From the sequence record PZ445521.1: a DNA stretch of 64,000 bases; one strand, given 5' to 3'. The position numbers were made by a program, and so were the translations under genes. Below the pieces are notes generated by a model. That model was not told where the DNA came from. It worked only from the letters and a program-made list of their open reading frames with translations, and ran no database searches. Below, piece by piece: positions 18,966 through 60,240 of this stretch; position 1 is the stretch's first letter; every line of letters starts with the position of its first letter. This DNA comes from a phage.

Positions 18966-18973
18966 TATTCACC

Positions 18974-19891
18974 TCAAAATTCATTAATGCTATTAGTTAA
19001 TTTAGAAAGACCCGCTTTTACAAAATATGAATAAATTTTGCCACGCGGTGGTAATTTATATGAATTATAGTAATTCACAATGTTTGAAGCAATATTATCA
19101 GGAATATAATCAAAATCAATTAGAACTAAATTTTCTTTATATCGATTATATTCAGATTCAGTGAGAAGCACCTTAGCTTGCTCGCGGTCATTAGCAATAG
19201 CTTCAACAATAGAGGTTTTCATTGAAGGAGTTCGTTCACCTTCAACTCTGGTAAACCAAAAGTCAGATCGTACTTTAACTGAAGCAACGTTATCCTTTTT
19301 GTCACCTTTAAGGATTTTAGTCATACAGTCAATTTCAGCAGAACCGCTTTTAATTTTAACCCATTTCTTGTGCATCGGTGACCATTGCTTAACATTTGGG
19401 TATTTATGGAGTTGAGTAAAGTCACCATCCGATGAAATGATTAAAATCTTATGTCCTTCTAAAGAGAACTTTTTAACAAGAACAGCAATATGGTCATCTG
19501 CTTCATACTTATCAATATCCATAACAATGTATGGCATATAAGCTTTCAATTCATCTATAACTTTATGACTGGATTCAAAATAACCTTCCCAGTCCCAAGT
19601 AGATTCTTCTCGTGCTTTTCCACGGTTTTTCTTATAATAATAAGCAAAATCACGACGCCAATATCCAGATTTCGCGTTATCAATACACAGTACAATTTTA
19701 GTGTATCCAAGAGCTTTTGCTTTTTTGACATTAAACTTAATTGAGTTCAATATCAAATGACGAACCATTGATAAATTAATTTTTTCTTTATCTGGAAAGT
19801 TTACCAAAGCAGTTGAAAGCGCAATTTGACTAAAGTCAATTAAGCAGATTCCTTCTTTGTAATCTTTATCCAGCATCATTTCTAAATCCAT
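18974..19891 (-). CDS. rnh: RNase H (5'-3' exonuclease, FEN family)
   Basis: 305 aa from MDLEMMLDKDYKEGICLIDFSQIA..; matches T4 RNase H. Confidence 0.9.
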   Translation of the reverse strand: MDLEMMLDKDYKEGICLIDFSQIALSTALVNFPDKEKINLSMVRHLILNSIKFNVKKAKALGYTKIVLCIDNAKSGYWRRDFAYYYKKNRGKAREESTWDWEGYFESSHKVIDELKAYMPYIVMDIDKYEADDHIAVLVKKFSLEGHKILIISSDGDFTQLHKYPNVKQWSPMHKKWVKIKSGSAEIDCMTKILKGDKKDNVASVKVRSDFWFTRVEGERTPSMKTSIVEAIANDREQAKVLLTESEYNRYKENLVLIDFDYIPDNIASNIVNYYNSYKLPPRGKIYSYFVKAGLSKLTNSINEF

Positions 19892-55572: not shown

Positions 55573-55773
55573 ATGGTACAAAAATTAATGGCACTTGTTG
55601 ATGCCATAAAAGGTAATAAGAAACGTATAGCTTTTACTATTTCTGCTATGGTAGGAATTTTACTCTGGAACTTTATTCTATCACCTGTTGCGATTGCACA
55701 TGGTATTAATATTCCAGTAGTTACTCTTGATACATTCGTAGATTTAGCATTTGCTTTAGTTGGGTTAATTTAA
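55573..55773 (+). CDS. small two-TM membrane protein on the opposite strand to flanking early genes
   Basis: Strong RBS AAGGAGG 5 nt before ATG; MVQKLMALVDAIKGNKKRIAFTISAMVGILLWNFILSPVAIAHGINIPVVTLDTFVDLAFALVGLI; 4-nt convergent overlap with gene 61. Confidence 0.5.
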   Translation: MVQKLMALVDAIKGNKKRIAFTISAMVGILLWNFILSPVAIAHGINIPVVTLDTFVDLAFALVGLI

Positions 55774-56798
55774 ATCTTGGCATATTTAGATAGCCGCATT
55801 TTAGCCATCAACCCCTGGGCAATATTATTTTTCATATATTCCATAATTTGTTCAGTGGTTGCACCTTCCTTTCTAATCATATCATTAACATCTTTTGATT
55901 TCCAGGGAGATTTATCCCAAAACATAACCCTTTCTCCTGCATCAACTAATTTAGTCATTCGCTTAATAGTGTCAGGATGACGAGGTTCATTATCTAAAAC
56001 CCACACACGTCTATCTTTAAATGGAACAACTTCTAGGTCTAATTGACCACCCGTAATAGCTATACCATTTTCAATAAAAAGTGAATCTATAGGTCCTTCT
56101 AGAACATATACATCACCATCTTTAACTCGTTCTACTCCATAGATTTTTGTTGCCTCAGGATAAGCTTTGATGGTGATATATTTTTGAGGAGCATCTTTCT
56201 TTAATGCACGTCCTTGAAAAGACTCAGCTTTTCCATTAGCATTATAAATTGGAATAACAAGACGAGGCTCAGAAATTTCCTTTTTATATGTTCCCGGTGC
56301 TATACTATTAACTAATTTAGGCCATTCGGTTGTAAACCAAAGATATTTCCATTTATCCTTTGGAATACAACGAGCTTTTACGTATTTTATAATTGGATGG
56401 TCTTCCGCCAGTTTATCTAATCTAACACATGACGGAAGAGATTTAATTATTTTCTTCTCAGGTTGTTTAGGAAGTTCTTTAGGTTTTTCTACTGGACGAC
56501 TTTTACCTTTTTCTTTTCTTATTTCAAAGATATACTCACGATATAAATCAGGTTCAAACTCCTTTAAATATATTCCGATTGGTGCATGATAGTTACAGTT
56601 ATAACAATGAATATTTCCTTCATTATTATCGCCATAATACCATCCACGAGCTTTATTCTGGTCGGTTTTTGAATCTCCACAAACAGGGCATCTAAACCGT
56701 AATTTAAAAGTTGAACTATTATTTACTTGTGTGAATTTAGGTAAATGGGCTAATGCACGATACGCAAACTCATTATCAATCCAAGGTATTGATGACAT
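55770..56798 (-). CDS. 61: gp61 DNA primase
   Basis: 342-aa ORF with N-terminal zinc ribbon (CPVCGDS...CYNCNYH) and Toprim domain. Confidence 0.9.
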   Translation of the reverse strand: MSSIPWIDNEFAYRALAHLPKFTQVNNSSTFKLRFRCPVCGDSKTDQNKARGWYYGDNNEGNIHCYNCNYHAPIGIYLKEFEPDLYREYIFEIRKEKGKSRPVEKPKELPKQPEKKIIKSLPSCVRLDKLAEDHPIIKYVKARCIPKDKWKYLWFTTEWPKLVNSIAPGTYKKEISEPRLVIPIYNANGKAESFQGRALKKDAPQKYITIKAYPEATKIYGVERVKDGDVYVLEGPIDSLFIENGIAITGGQLDLEVVPFKDRRVWVLDNEPRHPDTIKRMTKLVDAGERVMFWDKSPWKSKDVNDMIRKEGATTEQIMEYMKNNIAQGLMAKMRLSKYAKI

Positions 56799-56800
56799 TT

Positions 56801-56965
56801 TTACTCTTCTTTTTCTTTAGATTCCTCTTTTTTCTTTTTAGGAATCTGTTCAGGACCTTTATTTACTACAGCACCTGATGTTGTTCCAGTAGAGATATTT
56901 TCAGGATTACCACCTGAATCTCCAGCAACCATATCTTCTTTAATAAATTCTTTATATGTTTTCAT
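56801..56965 (-). CDS. hypothetical small Lys/Glu-rich protein (54 aa), not in ORF track
   Basis: MKTYKEFIKEDMVAGDSGGNPENISTGTTSGAVVNKGPEQIPKKKKEESKEKEE; stop 2 nt before gene 61 ATG. Confidence 0.45.
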   Translation of the reverse strand: MKTYKEFIKEDMVAGDSGGNPENISTGTTSGAVVNKGPEQIPKKKKEESKEKEE

Positions 56966-56966
56966 A

Positions 56967-57323
56967 TTAACCTCTATTCATAAAAGCATTAAAAATTTGG
57001 TCATCAATAGATGGCGCAGTAATATTTTCTGCATCATTTAGCAAATCATTAATTTCATCGGATAGCATAACACATGTACCTTTATTTCCTGTAATTGTTA
57101 CTGCACAATTACGAACGTTTTCTTTATCAAATTTTAGGTTAATATTTTCGTAGTGAAAATCCTTTAATGCCGAATATATCTTTAAAATGAAATTGTCTTT
57201 TACTACAATAAACCCAACCTCACTATTAAAACGCGGTTCATGGAAACTGTAATAAACCTTTTCATCTATAAAATCGTATGAAATTTTTTCCATTTTTAAA
57301 TATGAAAATTCAGAACTATACAT
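56967..57323 (-). CDS. hypothetical protein, single-domain member of a VKDN / SIDDQIFNAFMN family (61.1 position)
   Basis: 118 aa; C-terminus SIDDQIFNAFMNRG shared with next ORF. Confidence 0.55.
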   Translation of the reverse strand: MYSSEFSYLKMEKISYDFIDEKVYYSFHEPRFNSEVGFIVVKDNFILKIYSALKDFHYENINLKFDKENVRNCAVTITGNKGTCVMLSDEINDLLNDAENITAPSIDDQIFNAFMNRG

Positions 57324-57324
57324 A

Positions 57325-57957
57325 TTAACCTTTATTCATAAAAGCATTAAAAATTTGATCGTCAATAGAAACTTTTACTTTAGGCTGTTCTTCAAACGGT
57401 AATTCATATCCACATATTACAATTTTGTGATCGATACCAAAATACACAGAAGCAATATTATTAATATTATTTTCAGTGAAATCTAAATCAACATCAATAT
57501 CTTTTTGACTAACGCTCAAAGGATAATTAATACGAATAATTCGATTATCTTTAACAAAGATTCCACCGACATACTCTGTGCTGCGTTTAAAGTTTACACG
57601 TTTCCTAAATGAAAAATATTCAGGTTCTTTATGGGCTCGACTCATAGGGCTTAAAGTGTATTCCGAATATGAAATATCAAATCCTACACCTTCAATATGA
57701 GCCAAAGTATCATGATTAAACCAATTATAATCGTATGCCAAATCCATTAAATTGTAATATGTGAAAGGCACCGGATTAACATCATATGTTGTACCTTTAA
57801 AATCTGCCCAGGCAACGATTTCGTTATCTTTAACAATTACAAAAATTGTGCCAATAAGATATCCACGGTTATTTTCATCAGGTGTTATATTATAACATTG
57901 TGCATCAGGAAATTTACCGTATTTAAACGGTGGATTTTTGTGCATATAATAAATCAT
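57325..57957 (-). CDS. hypothetical protein with two copies of the VKDN domain (61.2 position)
   Basis: 210 aa; internal repeats IFVIVKDNEIVAW / GIFVKDNRIIRI; C-terminus SIDDQIFNAFMNKG. Confidence 0.55.
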   Translation of the reverse strand: MIYYMHKNPPFKYGKFPDAQCYNITPDENNRGYLIGTIFVIVKDNEIVAWADFKGTTYDVNPVPFTYYNLMDLAYDYNWFNHDTLAHIEGVGFDISYSEYTLSPMSRAHKEPEYFSFRKRVNFKRSTEYVGGIFVKDNRIIRINYPLSVSQKDIDVDLDFTENNINNIASVYFGIDHKIVICGYELPFEEQPKVKVSIDDQIFNAFMNKG

Positions 57958-57958
57958 A

Positions 57959-58252
57959 TTATTCGCCTGTGATTTCGGTTACGATATTTTTGTTATTAAA
58001 GTTTTTATCGCAATACAGAACATAATTATACTGCATTACACCACCAGACTTAAGTTGTTTTTGCACTTCAGCTTTCATTTCAGGACGATCGCGCTCAACG
58101 ATATTCATAATATCCGCTTCAATTTGAGTTTCAACTTCAGTCTGATCTGCAGTCATAGACCATTCACACAAATCTTTATCATATCCTGCCATAGCAGGCT
58201 GAGCAGCACAAGAAGCCAAAGTAAAAATTGTAGCAAAAATAAATTTTTTCAT
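57959..58252 (-). CDS. sp: Spackle periplasmic protein (superinfection exclusion / lysozyme inhibitor)
   Basis: 97-aa ORF with signal peptide MKKFIFATIFTLASCAAQPAMA. Confidence 0.8.
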   Translation of the reverse strand: MKKFIFATIFTLASCAAQPAMAGYDKDLCEWSMTADQTEVETQIEADIMNIVERDRPEMKAEVQKQLKSGGVMQYNYVLYCDKNFNNKNIVTEITGE

Positions 58253-58312
58253 GATAATCTCCTCAGTAGTTTATGTTTATATAGTATCTCAATTTCCAAC
58301 AAAAGTAAACAG

Positions 58313-58570
58313 CTATTTTAAAACTTCTGCGTAATCACATGTTACAAACTGTTTCTCTAGCTTAACGATTTTACGAAAATACCTTTTATACTGACGAATC
58401 TGCCTCTTCGTAGGACGTACAGCAAACTTAATAAATTCCACTCGACCAAATGGAGGACTTTCTTCTGCTGGAATATCTAGCACCAATTCCCACGTATCTG
58501 CAATAAGTGCTTTGAATTGAGTATTTTTCCTGACGTTATACGGAGTAGGTTTAAATAAAACAATATGCAT
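58313..58570 (-). CDS. hypothetical basic protein (61.4 position)
   Basis: 85-aa ORF adjacent to dmd. Confidence 0.5.
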   Translation of the reverse strand: MHIVLFKPTPYNVRKNTQFKALIADTWELVLDIPAEESPPFGRVEFIKFAVRPTKRQIRQYKRYFRKIVKLEKQFVTCDYAEVLK

Positions 58571-58571
58571 A

Positions 58572-58754
58572 TTATCCTCGGCAATCTACTTCACATACTT
58601 TCTTGTCATCAATGAAAGCTTTAACTAATGCTTTATTAACTTCAGCATATTGAGTAGTAGCCCATTGAACGTCATCTTTCATCATTGTGGTTTCTTTAGT
58701 AAACATGCTTTCATTCTTAAACCACCCCATAAAAACTACCTTTACCAATTCCAT
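58572..58754 (-). CDS. dmd: Dmd, inhibitor of host RnlA/LsoA toxins
   Basis: 60-aa ORF MELVKVVFMGWFKNESMFTKETTMMKDDVQWATTQYAEVNKALVKAFIDDKKVCEVDCRG matches T4 Dmd as recalled. Confidence 0.85.
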   Translation of the reverse strand: MELVKVVFMGWFKNESMFTKETTMMKDDVQWATTQYAEVNKALVKAFIDDKKVCEVDCRG

Positions 58755-58812
58755 AACAATCTCCTCATTTAACCAACAAGACTACTATACCATAGTCTCG
58801 TCAGCTTGTAAA

Positions 58813-60240
58813 CTAAAATTTTAATTCATTCGCCAAAGCATCTAACTGAGCTCGAGTGGATTCATTTCTTTGATAGCGATTCTGCTCAGCCTGAATCTGT
58901 TGTGAACCTGCTACTTCACTCACTTCAGTTGGAGTAGAATCTTGTTCGATTTCTACCCATTTCTGATTTCCCTTTTGAACACCCATCAAAAACTTATTCC
59001 ATTTATTTTTATCACCATATCGTGATTTGATTTGCTTAATGAGTTGTTGTTCAGCAGCTGCTAACTCCTCGGTTTCAATGACCGCAAGCATAAAATCGGC
59101 TGTTGCTGGAAGACCGGCAGATTCTGCAATATCGCTCATGTTAACATCGGAAGAGTCCCAAGCTTGTTTACCAACCTGTGCTGCAGTCCAAAGAACAGTT
59201 TCGGTTTCAACAGCAAGAGCACGCAATTCCTCTGCAATAGCTTTAACAGTTGTGTAACTATTTTCTGAATAAACTCTAATGCGGCAAGATTTACAAATAC
59301 CCAGATAGTCGACAATAATGATTGTTGGAACAAAATTCTTCTTAAGCTTCAATTCGTTTAAAAGTGATCGAAATGTATTAGCATCTGCTCCACCAGTAGG
59401 ATACTGTTTAACGATTAAACGACCGAGAGTAGATTTCTCGCGCCATTTTTCCATTTTTCCTTTATACTCAGCGTAAGAAATATGCCCATCATCAATGTCA
59501 TCAAGAGAAACATCAAGCATGTTAGCGTCAATACGCTTAGCACAGACTTCTTCTGCCATTTCCATGGAAATGTAAAGAACATTATGTCCGAGCTGTAAAT
59601 AATCTGCCGCTAATGAACACAATCCTAATGATTTACCAACGTTAACGCCAGCCATTAAAACGTTCAGTGTTCCAGTTTCAGCTCCGCCTTTAGTAATTTT
59701 GTTTAGAATTCTGAGTTTAAATGGAACCTTACGAGCTTTATTCATATAAGATAGCCAACGCGCTTCATAGTCATCCATCCAATCATGACCAACGTAGCTA
59801 TCAAATGAAATTGATAATGCTTGGCGCATGATGTCAGGAATAGCACCTACATCTGGCATTTTCTTATTTCGTTTTTCCGGAGGAAGCTCAGCATTAGTTT
59901 GAATTTCGATTATTTTAGACGTAGCATTAAACATCGCCCTTTGCTGAACATATTTTTCTGTTTCTTTTACTAACCAGCTGTGGTCTTCTGGAGAATCAGC
60001 CAGTTTTGAAATAAGTGTTTTTACACCAGAATATTCTGTTTCAGTAAATGAACTATTTTCTAATGCAACATTTAATGCATTAATAGATGGAACGCTATGA
60101 TACTCATTAACATGAGATTTAATTAATTTGAATGTATTTTTAGCTGGACCACTTTCAAAATATTCTGAATCCATATATGGCCAAACTTTTGAAAAATAAG
60201 CTTGATCAAATATAAGATGAGAAAGAATAATTTCTACCAC
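58813..60240 (-). CDS. 41: gp41 replicative DNA helicase (DnaB-like)
   Basis: 475-aa ORF with Walker A GVNVGKS. Confidence 0.9.
   Translation of the reverse strand: MVEIILSHLIFDQAYFSKVWPYMDSEYFESGPAKNTFKLIKSHVNEYHSVPSINALNVALENSSFTETEYSGVKTLISKLADSPEDHSWLVKETEKYVQQRAMFNATSKIIEIQTNAELPPEKRNKKMPDVGAIPDIMRQALSISFDSYVGHDWMDDYEARWLSYMNKARKVPFKLRILNKITKGGAETGTLNVLMAGVNVGKSLGLCSLAADYLQLGHNVLYISMEMAEEVCAKRIDANMLDVSLDDIDDGHISYAEYKGKMEKWREKSTLGRLIVKQYPTGGADANTFRSLLNELKLKKNFVPTIIIVDYLGICKSCRIRVYSENSYTTVKAIAEELRALAVETETVLWTAAQVGKQAWDSSDVNMSDIAESAGLPATADFMLAVIETEELAAAEQQLIKQIKSRYGDKNKWNKFLMGVQKGNQKWVEIEQDSTPTEVSEVAGSQQIQAEQNRYQRNESTRAQLDALANELKF

Follow-up and report, generated by a model that had tools for sequence, protein, structure and literature searches.

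How should a phage locus be read in which two neighbouring genes between primase gene 61 and helicase gene 41 encode related proteins of 118 and 210 amino acids, and in which the 3' ends of both genes lie in a near-identical 49-bp repeat: as the mark of a recent duplication, or as an older arrangement that is conserved for what its DNA does? We examined this in a window of 64,000 nucleotides, which denotes the whole stretch of DNA that was analysed and not the locus itself. At 100% identity, the stretch matches Shigella phage JK38 (Tequatrovirus), and all six small ORFs that an initial annotation had placed between genes 61 and 41 are present on the minus strand and agree with the annotation of JK38 (Table 1). 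Our reading, to which we give a probability of roughly 0.6, is that the locus is the anti-TA island of T-even phages, here carrying two AdfA-family genes in tandem, with the DNA of their common tail doubling as a P61-type promoter.

Table 1. Features of the region between genes 61 and 41 and its borders, in window coordinates.
Feature	Position	Strand	Basis
Gene 61, DNA primase	55770..56798	-	ORF; DNA primase annotation in the identical JK38 record
Gene 61.1, 54 aa	56801..56965	-	phrog_1823 (unknown function); 53/54 identical to T4 gp61.1
Repeat copy 1: last 14 codons of the 118-aa gene, stop, T, ATG of 61.1	56963..57011	-	
Middle promoter P61 (copy 1)	56964..56988	-	Sequence identical to the T4 P61 segment; pattern match
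118-aa single-domain AdfA-family paralogue	56967..57323	-	Pfam PF23813, 31.9 bits; phrog_4122; AlphaFold
Repeat copy 2: last 14 codons of adfA, stop, T, ATG of the 118-aa gene	57321..57369	-	
Second, putative P61-type promoter, inside the adfA tail	57322..57346	-	Pattern match; promoter annotation in phage Lutter
adfA (gene 61.2), anti-DarT factor A, 210 aa	57325..57957	-	Pfam PF23813, 461.7 bits, full length
sp, spackle periplasmic protein, 97 aa	57959..58252	-	Pfam T4_Spackle, E=5.8e-45; 91/97 identical to T4 Sp
tifA (gene 61.4), ToxN inhibitory factor A, 85 aa	58313..58570	-	83/85 identical to T4 gp61.4; Pfam DUF7279
dmd (gene 61.5), RnlA toxin inhibitor, 60 aa	58572..58754	-	Pfam Dmd, E=1.8e-45; 59/60 identical to T4 Dmd
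Sigma-70-type early-promoter-like site upstream of dmd-tifA	58784..58812	-	TTTACA-17-TATAGT with TG, 10/12 matches

The suspicion that this slot serves counter-defence held up, with AdfA, TifA and Dmd all identified in it. Srikant et al. 2022 named the dmd/tifA/adfA region a possible 'anti-TA island', renamed T4 gp61.4 TifA as the inhibitor of ToxN, and described Dmd as the inhibitor of the RnlA toxin (PMC9391042). In the window, the orthologues of dmd, tifA and adfA are likewise clustered between genes 41 and 61, with the same genes in the same order and flanking proteins that are 94-98% identical to those of T4, while, unlike in T4, a 118-aa gene and a second tail-promoter copy are added and the first 60 residues of AdfA are only 40% identical to T4 AdfA. 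T4 has the same AdfA architecture and one tail-promoter copy, the 118-aa gene and the second promoter copy being all that is extra in the window, which speaks against reading the arrangement as novel. NCBIfam models gave no match for any of the four unnamed island proteins, and the 61.1 product had none in Pfam or NCBIfam. Given that the island and AdfA are already known, the original observation as written adds little; it is the 118-aa relative, extra to T4, that is so far unstudied.

Residues 1-210 of the larger protein aligned with positions 1-211 of the AdfA profile, far above the cut-off of 27 bits, and the 210-aa product is annotated 'anti-DarT factor A' in PV857777. PHROGs cross-matches agree with the gene identities. 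The 210-aa gene is adfA, and its product is a full-length member of the family of RB69/T4 gp61.2. In PMC11257639, AdfA is described as a DarT-binding inhibitor whose R164H exchange in RB69 switches DarT1 binding (H permits it, R prevents it), the deletion of T4 AdfA is stated to cause no phenotype, and AdfB of phage ICP1 and AdfN (gp30.3, NADAR) appear as further phage anti-DarTG factors and proposed functional analogues. At the position equivalent to RB69 residue 164, most AdfA alleles carry H and RB69-like alleles carry R, whereas the alignment places N167 there in the window AdfA instead of the H of the allele shown to bind and neutralise DarT1, a difference that bears on allele specificity and not on family membership. 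Two VKDN-containing domains had been claimed for this protein, and their sequence resemblance is weak (N half versus C half without tails, profile comparison E=2.7e-4, probability 42%); it was the AlphaFold model that added to the claim, by predicting the order of five strands plus a helix twice (E2-64 / H67-77 and E100-159 / H162-173, followed by a tail helix, H198-207), at a medium overall confidence (pLDDT 72) that is low for the tail helix.

The 118-aa protein resembles the second of these modules. Its match to the AdfA profile covers positions 113-211 only and lies about 5 bits above the cut-off of 27. The proposed paralogy with the 210-aa protein was borne out by BLASTP both for the whole proteins (E=6e-11) and, upon removing the tails, for the short body against the C half of AdfA (E=1e-4, 32% identity over 79 residues), although the tail supplies much of the former score; when the AdfA C half and the short family were compared as profiles without their tails, the probability was 28% (E=6e-4). 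In its AlphaFold model (pLDDT 82, pTM 0.71, core pLDDT >90, tail helix of low confidence), the five-strand-plus-helix module occurs once (E8-64 / H67-78), in line with the single domain copy claimed before, and is followed by a short strand (E84-87), a helix (H89-100) and the tail helix (H106-115). The 118-aa protein shares with AdfA the C-terminal module, the invariant tail and the slot between sp and 61.1, but it consists of a single module plus tail, at half the AdfA length, where AdfA has a two-module architecture of ~210 aa, and its Pfam score barely clears the threshold. Where RB69 AdfA has R164, or H in the exchange, the two window proteins both have N, and short forms have N, H or D at the helix position aligned with this specificity site. 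The 118-aa gene is a single-domain paralogue, old in origin, of the C-terminal module of AdfA, the one which bears the DarT1-specificity residue (RB69 R164).

Annotations of the 118-aa protein read 'hypothetical' everywhere, and a literature search on a short AdfA paralogue returned nothing. A PDB sequence search with the family profile gave nothing meaningful (best E=0.39), and a fold search of BFVD gave family members only, all of unknown function. Ten matches were obtained upon searching 1.84 billion cluster representatives with the profile, all of them T-even-like, and hence without a link to cellular families or DarG. We also considered gp038 of phage VR25 as an AdfA N domain in a separate gene and rejected this, since without its tail it matched the N profile at E=0.12 versus E=3e-4 for the C profile; by these scores it is another single-module, tail-bearing member of the family.

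What, then, is the 49-bp repeat? Its two copies are identical at 46 of 49 bases, giving an ungapped score of 40, whereas resampling the region 60 times with a first-order Markov model gave 12.1 +/- 1.1 (maximum 15); this is far beyond chance, and a degenerate back-translation of the tail found 2 exact matches in 64 kb, where 0 were expected. As originally described, both proteins finish in SIDDQIFNAFMN(R/K)G, and after each stop the repeat runs on into T-ATG, the start codon of the next gene. The repeat is the coding DNA of the family's invariant tail, DDQIFNAFMN(R/K)G; the 118-aa protein ends within the broader family pattern DDQIFNAFM(N/K)R(G/D), followed by a stop and the ATG of the next gene. 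The same tail is found on three different body types in at least three genera. In Tequatrovirus, the tail DNA also holds the MotA-dependent middle promoter P61 as well as the Shine-Dalgarno sequence and start codon of the next gene, so that the window genome has two tail-promoter copies, 358 bp apart.

For T4, the P61 transcription start is listed at position 19122 of NC_000866 (Hinton 2010, Table 1; PMC2988021). This is the 9th base of 61.1, so that TAATAT, the -10 element, falls where the stop, T and AT meet, with TGCTTTT lying 12 bp farther upstream. Copy 1 in the window has the identical sequence and is placed alike with respect to 61.1 and 61: its MotA box TGCTTTT (56982-56988) lies inside the codons N-A-F, the 12-bp spacer contains the Shine-Dalgarno sequence GAGGT, and the -10 element (56964-56969) is made up of the stop TAA, a T and the AT of the 61.1 ATG. 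Transcription from it would start at base 56957, again the 9th base of 61.1. Unlike in T4, however, this copy sits in the tail of the 118-aa gene and not in that of adfA, and the adfA tail holds the second, putative copy, in which the MotA box (57340-57346) and the -10 element (57322-57327) are unchanged and the spacer carries one G-to-A exchange. Measured against the middle-promoter pattern, a MotA box (a/t)(a/t)(a/t)TGCTTtA lying 12 +/- 1 bp upstream of a -10 TAnnnT, both copies read taaTGCTTtT, 12 bp, TAATAT, with T instead of A at the last position of the box. They are among 26 occurrences of this pattern in the 64-kb window, where 7.75 +/- 2.5 would be expected. Both copies are annotated as promoters in phage Lutter, whose copy 1 has the same 27 nt as P61, and we consider copy 2 to be probably active. 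Its transcripts would start at base 57315, within the third codon of the 118-aa gene, and it would therefore serve 61.1 and 61 rather than the gene whose start codon it overlaps. Read-through from early transcription may instead be the source of full-length 118-aa protein. For dmd, an early promoter lying upstream has been described (PMC9391042), and Lutter has a promoter annotated at the place equivalent to the early-promoter-like site of Table 1. Going downstream from promoter copy 1, the first ORF to be complete is gene 61, which borders the island.

With identity of 60% or more as the limit, 299 phage records carry the 118-aa gene, and in 276 of these the identity is at least 95%. Upon querying the gene junctions, we found three states of the locus in Tequatrovirus, namely the tandem of both genes in 158 records, the short gene only in 141 (T2 included) and adfA only in 180 (T4 included), where the first two add up to the 299 records with the 118-aa gene. 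Beyond this genus, Gaprivervirus VR25 has short forms that are 46-49% identical, and there are other forms of 120-125 aa. The short-only state would be explained by a deletion of adfA. In T2, the 12-nt spacer between sp and the 118-aa gene, TTAGAGGTTAGT, agrees with the tail end ATAGAGGTTAAT in 10 of its 12 bases; a clean microhomology junction was discarded because the fit is inexact, with one extra T, and we limit the claim to this 10/12 tail remnant. The adfA-only state could arise through recombination between the two tails. We rejected the identity of the T4 tail with that of the 118-aa gene as proof of such an event, since the adfA tail of phiD1, which has the tandem, is also the same apart from one base. 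The locus of phiD1 apparently runs adfA + 118 + remnant + 118.

Together, these findings allow a wider proposal, which we offer tentatively and hold to be rather improbable: that the tail is a portable junction cassette, in which a C-terminal docking helix and a middle promoter are combined with the signals that start translation downstream, namely ribosome-binding site and start codon, and through which toxin-binding modules can be swapped, stacked and deleted by homologous recombination while primase expression stays undisturbed, with the 118-aa protein as a putative inhibitor of a defence toxin. The bodies seen at this one locus are of 210, 145-157 and 118-125 aa. In T4-type phages, gene shuffling is reportedly mediated by PeSL (promoter-early stem-loop) cassettes (Arbiol, Comeau and Krisch, 2010). 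The tail resembles these in that a short regulatory sequence is conserved, returns where genes meet within a plastic region and can serve as a recombination substrate, but differs from them in being a coding tail with a middle promoter instead of an intergenic early promoter with a stem-loop. As to function, the 118-aa protein may do as AdfA does and block a toxin of host defence by binding it one to one. T2 lacking adfN but keeping the 118-aa gene formed no plaques on DarTG1 cells (PMC11825919), and as T2 has the 118-aa gene without adfA, the short protein at its native level does not neutralise that DarT1. Its specificity would differ from that of AdfA, its target being something other than the E. 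coli DarT1 tested so far; having kept the module with the AdfA specificity residue, it is a candidate inhibitor of other DarT variants or toxins.

Instead of binding a toxin itself, the short protein might be a partner or modulator of AdfA or of some other protein with the tail, for instance if the C-terminal helices of the two paired. The identical tail and the tandem arrangement in 158 records fit such a role, as do the pair of tail-bearing genes found in Gaprivervirus too and the predicted low-confidence tail helix, joined to the body by a flexible linker as would be expected of a docking element. We nonetheless regard it as unlikely, because the short gene stands alone in the 141 T2-type records and adfA alone in the 180 T4-type records. 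It is quite unlikely, in our view, that the 118-aa ORF survives as a remnant without function, or mainly as a DNA carrier for P61 and the 61.1 ribosome-binding site. This would account for the promoter and ribosome-binding-site roles of the tail DNA, for the lack of a DarTG1 benefit from the gene in T2 without adfN (PMC11825919) and for T4-type phages doing without it. Yet, the tail of adfA itself supplies P61 in T4-type phages, making a carrier ORF unneeded, and the 118-aa ORF is undisrupted, keeps an identity of at least 95% across 276 records, has a confident compact predicted fold (core pLDDT >90), is the sole family member in the 141 T2-type records, and is kept as short forms in genera without a consensus MotA box in the tail, which have GCC or GCA for GCT.

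Whichever role the short protein has, about 300 sequenced Tequatroviruses carry a half-size AdfA relative, including T2, described in the literature as without an adfA homologue. Because tail, promoter and ribosome-binding site overlap, deleting or recoding adfA or the short gene could alter the expression of 61.1 and the primase, a caveat for knockout experiments on either gene; the three-state polymorphism, in turn, offers natural isogenic-like comparisons for host-range tests.

That the repeat marks a recent duplication or recombination which made the 118-aa gene from adfA, in an ongoing arms-race expansion as first proposed, is very unlikely: the repeat is 94% identical while the remaining gene DNA cannot be aligned, the gene comes and goes among close relatives and segmental amplification has been observed experimentally at the adjacent dmd-tifA (PMC9391042), but the protein bodies are only ~30% identical, short forms occur in Gaprivervirus (46-49% identity) and other lineages with alignments already pointing to a split of the short forms from the AdfA C domain that predates the parting of Tequatrovirus and Gaprivervirus, at least three genera keep the tail on bodies of three types, and the repeated DNA must serve peptide, MotA box, -10 element and Shine-Dalgarno sequence at once. 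The duplication is old. As tail, P61 and downstream ribosome-binding site occupy the same 49 bp, the segment is strongly conserved, and we suggest that the near-identity of its copies would reflect these stacked constraints together with occasional gene conversion and not recency. The two tails are identical over 33 nt in L010 and differ at 3 sites in VR25, and codon choices in the tail, such as GCC or CGA, are common to the copies within a genome and differ between genera.

Between the primase gene 61 and the helicase gene 41, ORF calling returned six small minus-strand ORFs, at exactly the positions given by the initial annotation. Shigella phage JK38 (Tequatrovirus) matches the region 56700-58900 at 100% identity and has the identical six-gene list in its annotation; more than 100 further T4-like phages match it at 97-99%. 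A full-length match (461.7 bits) places the 210-aa protein in the Pfam family 'AdfA, anti-DarT factor A', a label that it also carries in the annotation of phage Ec_O157kw; Pfam furthermore identified the 97-aa protein as Spackle and the 60-aa protein as Dmd, and the 85-aa protein is identical to T4 gp61.4 at 83 of 85 residues. T4 gp61.4 inhibits the ToxN toxin and was renamed TifA by Srikant et al., who suggested that 'an anti-TA island' might be made up of dmd, tifA, and adfA and regarded the remaining genes of the region as attractive antitoxin candidates (PMC9391042). The anti-defence reading of the island, given for the T4 slot in the initial annotation, is right and already published, as borne out by the identities of adfA, tifA, and dmd and by that report. 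Searches of Pfam, PHROGs, and NCBIfam assigned no function to the 54-aa protein (61.1). Just past the primase gene, a 66-aa hydrophobic ORF on the opposite strand is the counterpart of a T2 gene annotated 'similar to RB69ORF029w'.

Features of the island and its surroundings, in window coordinates
Feature	Position	Strand	Basis
66-aa hydrophobic ORF	55573-55773	+	
Gene 61, primase	55770-56798		
49-bp direct repeat, copy at 118-aa gene end	56963-57011		
P61-type element, copy in 118-aa gene tail	56964-56988	-	pattern match
118-aa gene	56967-57323	-	
49-bp direct repeat, copy at adfA end	57321-57369		
P61-type element, copy in adfA tail	57322-57346	-	pattern match
adfA (61.2), 210-aa protein	57325-57957	-	
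AdfA N167 codon	57457-57459	-	
AdfA residues 1-60	57778-57957	-	
Gene 41, helicase	58813-60240		

New here are a widespread single-module AdfA relative, a locus that exists in three states, and an overlap between the C-terminal tail of the family and the promoter P61. We assign a probability of about 0.6 to the explanation as a whole, which joins well-supported parts, namely the identities of the genes, their membership in the family, the overlap with the promoter, and the polymorphism of the locus, to an inhibitor function of the 118-aa protein that we infer.

The 118-aa and 210-aa proteins are paralogs, as had been proposed. BLASTP aligned them at E=6e-11 with 13 of the 39 identities in the common tail, and upon removal of both tails the 118-aa protein still matched AdfA residues 111-186 (E=1e-4, 32% identity, 79 residues). 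It also scored 31.9 bits against the Pfam AdfA profile (cut-off 27 bits), in the C-terminal half only. In a good AlphaFold model of the short protein (pLDDT 82, core >90), five strands lead into a helix (67-78), after which come a short strand, another helix, a linker of low confidence, and a helix at the terminus. The medium-quality model of AdfA (pLDDT 72) passes through the order of five strands plus helix two times, at 2-77 and at 100-173, before the same terminal helix. The second part of the proposal, two domains against one, is likely but not proven: the structural order speaks for two related modules in AdfA, but a profile comparison of its tail-free halves gave a weak signal (E=2.7e-4, probability 42%).

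The near-identical 49-bp direct repeat noticed in the initial annotation is real, with 46 of 49 bases identical and a score of 40 compared to 12.1 ± 1.1 in resampled sequence, and each copy runs from the final 14 codons of a gene through its stop and a single T to the start codon ATG of the gene that follows. We found that this DNA corresponds to a known promoter region. The T4 middle promoter P61 starts at base 19122 of the reference genome (Hinton review, PMC2988021 Table 1), which is the ninth base of 61.1, as this gene is complement(18966..19130) in NC_000866. In T4, the -10 element TAATAT combines the stop codon of adfA (TAA) with the following T and the first two bases (AT) of the 61.1 start codon. 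Located 12 bases upstream within the tail codons N-A-F, taaTGCTTTT agrees with the MotA box as published, (a/t)(a/t)(a/t)TGCTTtA at 12 ± 1 bp. The spacer holds GAGGT, the Shine-Dalgarno of the next gene, which stems from the R-G codons. The two such elements in the window differ by one spacer change, and both carry a promoter label in the annotation of phage Lutter. The 49 bp thus carry four overlapping constraints, from the peptide, the MotA box, the -10, and the ribosome-binding site together with the start codon, which are enough to account for the conservation with no recent event. From the predicted copy in the adfA tail, transcripts would start in codon 3 of the 118-aa gene, so that the full-length short protein would come from early transcripts reading through from upstream of sp or dmd, and this copy would serve 61.1 and 61 instead. 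Against 7.75 ± 2.5 expected, the window contains the pattern TGCTTY-N12-14-TANNNT 26 times, mostly on the transcribed strand, with 18 of the occurrences on the minus strand; these sites could offer a rapid overview of candidate MotA-dependent promoters in the phage.

The initial annotation had read the repeat as a recent duplication or recombination, which proved unsupported, since the family is old and wide and the overlapping constraints can account for the conservation of the repeat. Searched exhaustively with the family profile, 1.84 billion cluster representatives gave only ten matches, all in T-even-like phages and among them short forms with lengths of 119, 120, and 125 aa. The 119-aa form of Gaprivervirus VR25 (46% identical by tblastn, 49% in alignment) adjoins a gene for a 145-aa protein that ends in the same tail but has another body, and an IMG/VR scan located the tail coding pattern on three body types of 208-216, 145-157, and 117-119 aa. 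Given these short forms in other phages and another genus, the three tail-bearing bodies, and at least 95% identity of the 118-aa protein in 276 of the 299 records carrying it, we take the duplication as ancient and the short gene as maintained. Structure, fold, and sequence searches found no link to solved structures or cellular families. In the tails of Mosigvirus and Gaprivervirus, the alanine codon GCA or GCC breaks the MotA box core and leaves the peptide unchanged, indicating that the peptide itself is under selection. The tails of one genome have common codon choices that differ between genera, and in one compared locus (L010) they are identical over 33 nt, which points to occasional gene conversion between tails.

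Gene order varies around these genes. In VR25 (L006, 1559-2580), the tandem 145-aa and 119-aa genes are directly followed by a 73-aa gene noted as 'similar to bacteriophage T4 gp61.4', and dmd lies elsewhere in the island, indicating shuffling between genera. In RB69 (L005, 3012-3690), an insertion between sp and 61.4 holds imm and imm.1, which are superinfection-immunity genes, adfA is separated from 61.1 by two additional small ORFs, and 61.1 is longer (92 aa), with only its C-terminal part in common.

Upon counting arrangements with junction-specific 160-nt queries, we obtained 158 records with the tandem junction (adfA tail into 118-aa gene), 141 with the T2-type junction (sp straight into 118-aa gene), and 180 with the T4-type junction (adfA into 61.1), the first two adding up to the 299 records with the 118-aa gene. 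T2, which according to the literature naturally has no adfA homologue, holds the short paralogue in this slot, annotated gp61.2. The 12 nt that separate sp from the short gene in T2 agree with the end of an adfA tail at 10 of 12 positions, the stop reading TAG in place of TAA, and we therefore read the T2 type as a probable deletion of adfA. If its two tails recombined, a tandem genome would turn into the T4 type and keep no scar; the sequences give no direction for this change. Yersinia phage phiD1 (HE956711; L007, 1201-2903) carries adfA, then two 118-aa genes with a 33-aa tail remnant between them, and then 61.1; as the stretch contains ambiguous bases, this may reflect either a true triplication or an assembly error at the repeat.

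The literature describes AdfA as a small DarT1-binding protein that blocks this toxin, and the single change R164H switches on DarT1 binding in RB69 AdfA (PMC11257639). This site falls in the helix of the C-terminal module, the one common to the short protein. Most alleles have H there, including Ec_O157kw (98% DNA identity), RB69-like alleles have R or H, and the window has N167, so that N would be a third natural state of this predicted site. Short forms have N, H, or D at the aligned position, flanked by conserved residues, which looks like a specificity-determining contact. Hence, the 118-aa protein is most likely a toxin binder with its own target. T2 lacking adfN, the gene of another anti-DarTG factor (gp30.3, NADAR), forms no plaques on DarTG1 cells with its short gene retained (PMC11825919), which counts against an action of the short protein on the DarT1 tested there. 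T4 resists DarTG2 although it lacks the short gene, which is thus dispensable for this resistance. Deletion of T4 AdfA gives no phenotype (PMC11257639). The adfA gene is furthermore a mosaic: its first 60 residues are identical to T4 at 24 of 60 positions, with an N-terminus resembling that of RB69, compared to ~87% for the remainder and 94-98% for the neighbours 61.1, sp, tifA, and dmd.
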